DNA of 4,496 nucleotides from a virus (taxonomy: Duplodnaviria; Heunggongvirae; Uroviricota; Caudoviricetes): IMG/VR virus record IMGVR_UViG_2740892234_000016; one strand, given 5' to 3'. Positions 1,145 to 1,649 of this stretch are shown here, piece by piece (position 1 is the stretch's first letter; each line of letters opens with the position of its first letter). A program made the position numbers and the translations under genes. The notes beneath the pieces were generated by a model. It was not told where the DNA came from. It saw only the letters and a program-made list of their open reading frames with translations, and ran no database searches.

Positions 1145-1308
1145 GAACGAGCATTGAGATTGCACATAGCCTTGCTCAAATTGGAGTCAGGTTTGTGCCA
1201 ATACCAGTAGAAACAGACGAAGAATTTCATACGTTAGCCGCATCCCTTTCACAAAAGCTGGAAATGATGGTGGCGAAAGCAGAAGCAGATGAGAGAGACC
1301 AGGTATGA
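1117..1308 (+). CDS. Small hypothetical protein, lambda orf63-like (63 aa)
   Basis: [66 protein letters not shown] is preceded by a GAGGGG ribosome-binding site at 1107-1112. Its stop overlaps the next ATG as ATGA. It matches my memory of lambda orf63. Confidence 0.68.
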   Translation: MHKASPVELRTSIEIAHSLAQIGVRFVPIPVETDEEFHTLAASLSQKLEMMVAKAEADERDQV

Positions 1309-1364
1309 CAACCACTGAATGCATTTTTCTGGCAGCGGGCTTCATATTCTGTGTGCTTATGCTT
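1305..1364 (+). CDS. 5' fragment (20 codons) of a small hydrophobic ORF, cut off by the assembly gap; copy of the ORF at 2196-2279
   Basis: ATG at 1305-1307 overlaps the orf63 stop. It translates MTTTECIFLAAGFIFCVLML and then runs into the N run. It is 59/60 nt identical to 2196-2255. Confidence 0.35.
1305..1364. repeat. Direct repeat, 60 nt, paired with 2196-2255 (59/60 identical)
   Basis: The two 60-nt stretches differ at one position (ACT versus ACG, codon 4). Identity begins exactly at the ATG; the sequence upstream of each copy is unrelated. Confidence 0.85.
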
Positions 1365-1374
1365 NNNNNNNNNN
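1365..1374. other. Assembly gap (10 consecutive N)
   Basis: There is a run of 10 n characters in the sequence. The ORF-track products containing X (1319-1507 + and 1227-1697 -) are artefacts of reading across it. Confidence 0.99.
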
Positions 1375-1491
1375 ATTGAGCGGAATGAAAAGTACATGGC
1401 GAATTTTGACGAGATGGTGCCGGAGTTCATCGAAAAAATGGACGTGGCACTGGCTGAAATTGGTTTTGTATTTGGGGAGCAATGGCGATGA
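1375..1491 (+). pseudogene. exo: 3'-terminal fragment (38 codons + stop) of a second, diverged exo gene, truncated at the gap
   Basis: Translating in frame from 1375 gives [38 protein letters not shown] then a stop. The full exo at 285-965 ends [39 protein letters not shown]. The differences are spread through the fragment, so this is a homologue rather than an exact duplicate. Confidence 0.7.
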
Positions 1492-1644
1492 AGCATCCTC
1501 ACGATAATATCCGGGTAGGCGCGATCACTTTCGTCTACTCCGTTACAAAGCGAGGCTGGGTATTTCCCGGCCTTTCTGTTATCAGAAATCCACTGAAAGC
1601 ACAGCGGCTGGCTGAGGCGATAAATAATAAACGGGGGCTGTATG
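1375..1644. repeat. Direct repeat copy B (exo 3' end + orf60a'), paired with 849-1119
   Basis: See copy A. Copy B is bounded on the left by the N gap and on the right by the ATG of the methyltransferase gene. Confidence 0.85.
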
Positions 1645-1649
1645 ACTGA
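1482..1649 (+). CDS. Second orf60a-like small protein (55 aa), diverged paralogue of 956-1144
   Basis: Hand translation gives [55 protein letters not shown]. It has the same frame relationship to the exo' fragment as orf60a has to exo. It is absent from the ORF track because it is under 60 aa. Its C-terminus differs from copy A because of a 1-nt indel near 1633. Confidence 0.55.

Follow-up and report, generated by a model that had tools for sequence, protein, structure and literature searches.

The window (the whole stretch of DNA analysed in this work, 4,496 nucleotides) consists of two blocks of genes separated by a run of exactly ten N at 1365–1374, all the genes and shared repeats discussed below lying on the plus strand. 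The left block (1–1364), here called prophage A type after its closest match, opens with the 3′ end of bet (1–288), which codes for a RecT-family recombinase and matches the bet of the prophage next to mlrA in the closed genome of E. coli 2013C-3264 (NZ_CP027544.1). The frame-1 translation of this bet stops at the TGA of 286–288, which overlaps the ATG of exo. The exo gene itself (285–965) is complete; its product, a lambda-type exonuclease, covers positions 2–149 of the 150 in the YqaJ profile (PF09588, E=5.7e-30), and the exo of prophage A is annotated in the closed genome as lambda exonuclease family protein. A homologue of orf60a (DUF1317, 956–1144; PF07026, E=1.8e-40) and a homologue of orf63 (DUF1382, 1117–1308; PF07131, E=1e-30) follow, the latter being a cassette specific to prophage A. 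These four genes stand in the order of the early-left region of phage lambda, with start/stop overlaps between them. The lambda map runs exo-orf60a-orf63 and then orf61, whilst in prophage A orf63 is followed by a 27-aa ORF, then a 71-aa gene and a TraR/DksA gene. What the window holds of this 27-aa ORF is the first 20 codons, as the reading frame starting at 1305 (MTTTECIFLAAGFIFCVLML...) is broken by the N run after 60 nt (1305–1364). These agree at 59 of 60 positions with the start of the complete 27-aa ORF encountered further downstream at 2196–2279, with the last 48 nt (1317–1364) identical to 2208–2255.

The sequence resumes after the Ns, in frame, with the last 38 codons of a second lambda-type exonuclease (1375–1491), the counterpart of 849–965 in the first copy, from whose C-terminus it differs in four residues (34/38 identical). 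This fragment gives no Pfam match and sits past the YqaJ domain; it was also identified through the full-length gene at the corresponding locus of the closed genome, and in all complete contexts the gene codes for 226 amino acids. A second orf60a (DUF1317, 1482–1649; PF07026, E=1.7e-32) comes next, with a C-terminus shorter than that of the first copy because the cassette that follows starts there. Exact look-up of the 55-aa reading of this gene, from the ATG at 1482, gave no record, and the 53-aa product that starts at the ATG of 1488 has exact matches in 52 blocks of the assembly collection. All this bears out the sequence-only reading as to the small ORF broken after 20 codons by the N run of 1365–1374 and as to the 3′ end of a second exo and a second orf60a beyond it. 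The same reading held the two exo-orf60a copies to be about 90% identical and not 100%. They are indeed not identical, the figure however being 95% (258/271; 849–1119 vs 1375–1644), with 93% in the exo tail and 97% in orf60a, or 96% over 260 nt without gaps. The likeness between the two copies stops at a common ATG, which is the start of orf63 (1117) in the first and that of a methyltransferase gene (1642) in the second.

One base of the second orf60a deserves a separate mention. Position 1533 is G in the window and A in the reference copy of this prophage (Val vs Ile, residue 18 of the 55-aa ORF), and G is also the base found at the equivalent position 1007 of the first copy. Natural variation, gene conversion between prophages and a repeat consensus are all possible reasons. 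That the G is a necessary sign of a collapsed consensus was rejected, as numerous independent contigs encode exactly this protein variant.

The right block (1375–4496), or prophage B type, is characterized by the methyltransferase gene just mentioned, an N6-adenine DNA methyltransferase of the Dam family (1642–2199; PF05869, E=2.3e-56) which is the cassette specific to prophage B. Its product scores 190.5 bits against a Pfam gathering cut-off of 28.1 and spans profile positions 1–168 of 169, so to say the full length of the domain, and the gene is 100% identical to its copies in NZ_CP027544.1 and in phage PhiR30_1. Downstream of it lie the complete 27-aa hydrophobic ORF (2196–2279), with which the second of the repeats common to A and B begins, and the 71-aa hypothetical gene (2276–2491), which codes for one and the same protein (WP_000188870.1) in both prophages. 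The rest is the left arm of prophage B (2590–4496), with genes recognized by Pfam as a TraR/DksA zinc finger (2590–2808), a DUF4222 protein (2856–3134) and the tyrosine integrase intD (3333–4496), just past which RefSeq annotates a tRNA-Arg and fimZ, as well as with the remnant of an HTH excisionase-like gene. The last base of the window, 4496, is the end of the intD stop codon; in the closed genome tRNA-Arg lies 15 nt past intD and is followed by fimZ, which is the classical DLP12/argU integration site (L002 9138–9214). The argU-site intD prophages carrying a phage Dam (DLP12 position; NZ_CP027544.1 4447725–4452192, and PhiR30_1) are in fact the known system closest to the right block: they are 99.9% identical to it and show the same succession of DUF1317, Dam, 71-aa gene, TraR/DksA, DUF4222 and intD, then tRNA-Arg and fimZ. 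The start of the integrase gene (3333) is overlapped by an ORF of 133 aa (3076–3477) whose N-terminal part is HTH-like. RefSeq has at its position only a 66-nt remnant, an incomplete helix-turn-helix pseudogene, and in one related contig (L014) a 116-aa HTH_17 gene (PF12728) is called there; the ORF probably represents an excisionase-like gene of the argU-site prophage which has decayed or become fused. In one closed genome, AP027642.1 (L015 5238–6451), an IS element with HTH_Tnp_1 and rve transposase genes sits between the DUF1317 and Dam genes of the B-type module.

When each flank of the N run was searched separately against 5,426 closed E. coli genomes, the best match of the left one (1–1364) was to NZ_CP027544.1, positions 1019826–1021189 on the plus strand (99.9%, one mismatch), and the right one (1375–4496) was found in that same genome at 4447725–4450846 on the minus strand (99.9%, two mismatches). 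The two loci are 3.4 Mb apart and in opposite strands, and each belongs to a prophage of its own. Prophage A, beside mlrA, reads gam-bet-exo-DUF1317-DUF1382-(27-aa ORF, unannotated)-71-aa gene-TraR/DksA-ea22-...-xis-int. Prophage B, beside tRNA-Arg/fimZ, reads gam-bet-exo-DUF1317-Dam-(27-aa ORF)-71-aa gene-TraR/DksA-DUF4222-intD. From these positions and the annotation of the closed genome it follows that the window is an upstream part of A followed by a downstream part of B. The two exo-orf60a copies are accordingly each 99.9% identical to a different prophage as opposed to 95% to each other, and are not the mutual closest relatives that a tandem duplication originating in one locus would have left. 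The closed genome has three matching places in its record, i.e., also a third lambdoid match.

Alignment of the A-type sequence (the left part of the window extended by its reference downstream) with the B-type sequence (the reference upstream extended by the right part of the window) shows where the two blocks end relative to what A and B share. A stretch of exo A of 141 nt (708–848) is identical to the exo B sequence located just upstream of the first post-gap base in the closed genome, and this identical run ends directly before 849 in A and directly before 1375 in B. The right block therefore begins on the very first base that tells B from A, and the reduction of its exo to the last 38 codons is due to its beginning there. 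On the other side, an 82-nt identical run occupies 1317–1398 in A and corresponds to 2208–2289 in B, and the left block halts 48 nt into it. Both ends abutting the Ns are, in other words, placed by the borders of sequence shared between two loci, which is the product expected of a short-read assembler, whereas nothing would lead an illegitimate junction of biological origin to coincide with repeat edges at both sides. Short-read assemblies of STEC typically have contig breaks within lambdoid prophages, owing to the homogeneity of the latter (PMC7175801). Within the duplicated part, a further identical stretch of 138 nt (920–1057 = 1446–1583) was assembled ungapped in both copies, which implies that the assembly drew on paired-end information.

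If the succession seen in the window were real, the same arrangement, or a junction made of real bases, should turn up in independent assemblies. A composite query was made of 160 nt specific to orf63 and 546 nt specific to Dam, the two parts being joined if within about 850 nt. They were together in one place in none of the 5,426 closed E. coli genomes, 3,172 of which had a match, and in none of the 50,697 phage records, 175 of which had one. The exact orf63 protein is found in 532 blocks of the assembly collection; among the ten distinct contexts listed of these, all ten have the 71-aa gene 77 nt downstream of orf63 and none has DUF1317 or Dam after it. Conversely, of the 52 blocks in which the second DUF1317 is present as the exact 53-aa protein, the ten contexts listed all have bet and a complete exo (226 aa) upstream of it, and none has DUF1382 there. 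The two flanks joined by 0–30 free bases had no match in the viral, genome and metagenome contig collections, with a pattern to which literal Ns possibly do not match. Neither the arrangement nor a real-base junction was thus found in the genomes, phages, collections and 20 contexts covered.

The sequence-only reading had left two possibilities standing, a real tandem exo-orf60a-orf63 / exo′-orf60a′-dam and a chimeric join, the mark of the latter being an orf63 linked directly with the 27-aa ORF and the 71-aa gene, no methyltransferase lying in between. Exactly this linkage is seen in the closed genome and in nine other independent contigs, whilst the tandem is absent from all the closed E. 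coli genomes and phage records searched. Its view that the sides of the gap come from two related but different lambdoid modules agrees with the 99.9% matches to two distinct prophages of NZ_CP027544.1. The chimeric join it placed in its title is favored by the location of the flanks in two distant prophages, by the tandem being unseen elsewhere and by contig ends that lie on repeat edges. On this comparative evidence, which comes from other strains, the ten Ns at 1365–1374 are very probably a false scaffold join of two unrelated contigs that belong to two different lambdoid prophages of E. coli, whose counterparts lie 3.4 Mb apart in NZ_CP027544.1.

Other interpretations are conceivable. The window could be taken at face value as a real partial tandem (exo-orf60a-orf63-27aa′ followed by ′exo-orf60a-Dam), generated by illegitimate recombination between prophages and with its short junction hidden by the Ns. 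Recombination between EHEC prophages is a known phenomenon, and the two copies are 95% and not 100% identical, hence not a simple collapsed-repeat error. Homologous exchange between prophages would, however, yield a clean hybrid, for instance by inversion or deletion, in which every shared segment is present only once. We rejected it as the origin of the arrangement, given that it leads to hybrids without duplication and that there is no homology between the two segments that meet at the gap, namely the beginning of the 27-aa ORF and the 3′ portion of exo. The order observed thus requires a non-homologous junction, and yet both ends coincide exactly with the edges of runs identical in A and B, as assembly breaks do. 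A real REARRANGEMENT, for which such a junction must fall within the ten Ns and both its ends must have landed on repeat edges by chance, is very unlikely, and so is the illegitimate recombination that would have created it, all the more as nothing of the kind was found in the 5,426 closed genomes, the 50,697 phage records and the 20 contexts, nor a real-base junction in the three contig collections.

It could also be argued that the order of the contigs is right and the gap much larger than ten nucleotides, the two prophages being close to one another, e.g., integrated in tandem, and the Ns standing for the rest of A and the start of B. Scaffold N runs often differ from the true length of the gap, and lambdoid prophages arranged in tandem are found in E. 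coli. But the nearest closed genome, 99.9% identical at both sides, has its two prophages, one at mlrA and the other, oppositely oriented, at argU, separated by 3.4 Mb; and the integrase of the right contig is the argU-site intD, this 387-aa protein being adjoined by tRNA-Arg and fimZ in every chromosomal context seen. Such proximity is no more credible than the partial tandem. The slimmest chance of all, close to negligible, goes to the Ns being ten real bases, masked or of low quality, inside one continuous and correctly assembled molecule. A few stretches in one sequence collection are masked as N runs, but here masking would need a real junction leading from codon 20 of the 27-aa ORF to codon 189 of exo, for which all the evidence against the tandem holds, and flanks with 0–30 real bases between them were not found in the three collections scanned.

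Returning to the false scaffold join, the software steps behind it, as distinct from the flank positions, the absence of the junction and the coincidence with repeat edges that were observed, we infer to have been as follows. The source would be an E. coli strain with at least two lambdoid prophages, assembled in draft form from short reads. Contig 1 (1–1364) would come from a mlrA-type prophage (bet-exo-orf60a-orf63-27aa ORF-71aa gene-TraR-ea22...int) and contig 2 (1375–4496) from an argU/fimZ-type prophage (bet-exo-orf60a-Dam-27aa ORF-71aa gene-TraR-DUF4222-intD). The two would be nearly identical in the middle of exo, in the exo tail with orf60a, and in the 27-aa ORF with the 71-aa gene, and would differ in the cassette lying between the shared stretches, i.e., orf63 in A and Dam in B. 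The assembler would have let each contig end at the edge of a shared stretch, and scaffolding or contig ordering may then have set the two alternative branches in series with a filler of ten Ns. With branches from two prophages placed in series, neither the shortened second exo nor the shortened first 27-aa ORF would be a gene, both being contig ends. Velvet stores its nodes as the last bases of their k-mers, and both Velvet and SPAdes use 10 N as minimal artificial gap. The 48-nt overhang at the left side and its lack at the right side would fit a de Bruijn graph with k=49 and a second node written as the last base of each k-mer. A k=49 graph alone would, however, not resolve the 138-nt identical stretch, and reference-guided ordering of contigs against a genome with one such prophage would give the same picture, so that the exact software scenario is uncertain. 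The whole resembles the misjoins and breaks at lambdoid repeats of short-read E. coli/STEC drafts, in which the same kind of N run stands between contigs ending in multi-prophage sequence and each flank is likewise the faithful copy of a different prophage. Nothing essential is different here, except that the serial placing of alternative branches mimics a tandem duplication.

The real biology at this locus is ordinary lambdoid mosaicism, well known in kind. The orf63 (DUF1382) and Dam genes are alternative cassettes between a conserved orf60a upstream and the 27-aa ORF and 71-aa gene downstream. The boundary of the mosaic is at the start codon of the cassette gene (1111–1120 vs 1637–1645), the two sequences being alike up to ...GGGGCTGTATG and unrelated beyond it, so orf63 and Dam share a homologous ATG and the second DUF1317 ends seven residues earlier than the first. 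Both cassettes also end in the same way, in an ATGA overlap with the 27-aa hydrophobic ORF (MTTTECIFLAAGFIFCVLMLADMGLVQ), whose ATG overlaps the upstream stop in either context and whose own stop overlaps the ATG of the 71-aa gene, again as ATGA. Judged from the sequence, these overlaps suggest translational coupling and a small membrane peptide. The ORF is intact and identical in 22 of the 22 related loci examined, a conservation which is no proof of coding since the DNA is nearly identical everywhere. RefSeq does not annotate it in NZ_CP027544.1, and some GenBank records have it as a hypothetical protein.

The junction itself carries no new biology, and its importance is one of bookkeeping only. 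Taken as it is, the scaffold gives a wrong gene order, wrong prophage boundaries and wrong gene counts, namely one prophage that has exo and orf60a in duplicate and carries orf63 as well as Dam. The bet-exo-orf60a-orf63 half should not be assigned to the argU/intD prophage, and inferences that treat 1–4496 as one prophage should be dropped. The actual situation is that of two prophages, one of them with orf63 and the other one with Dam.
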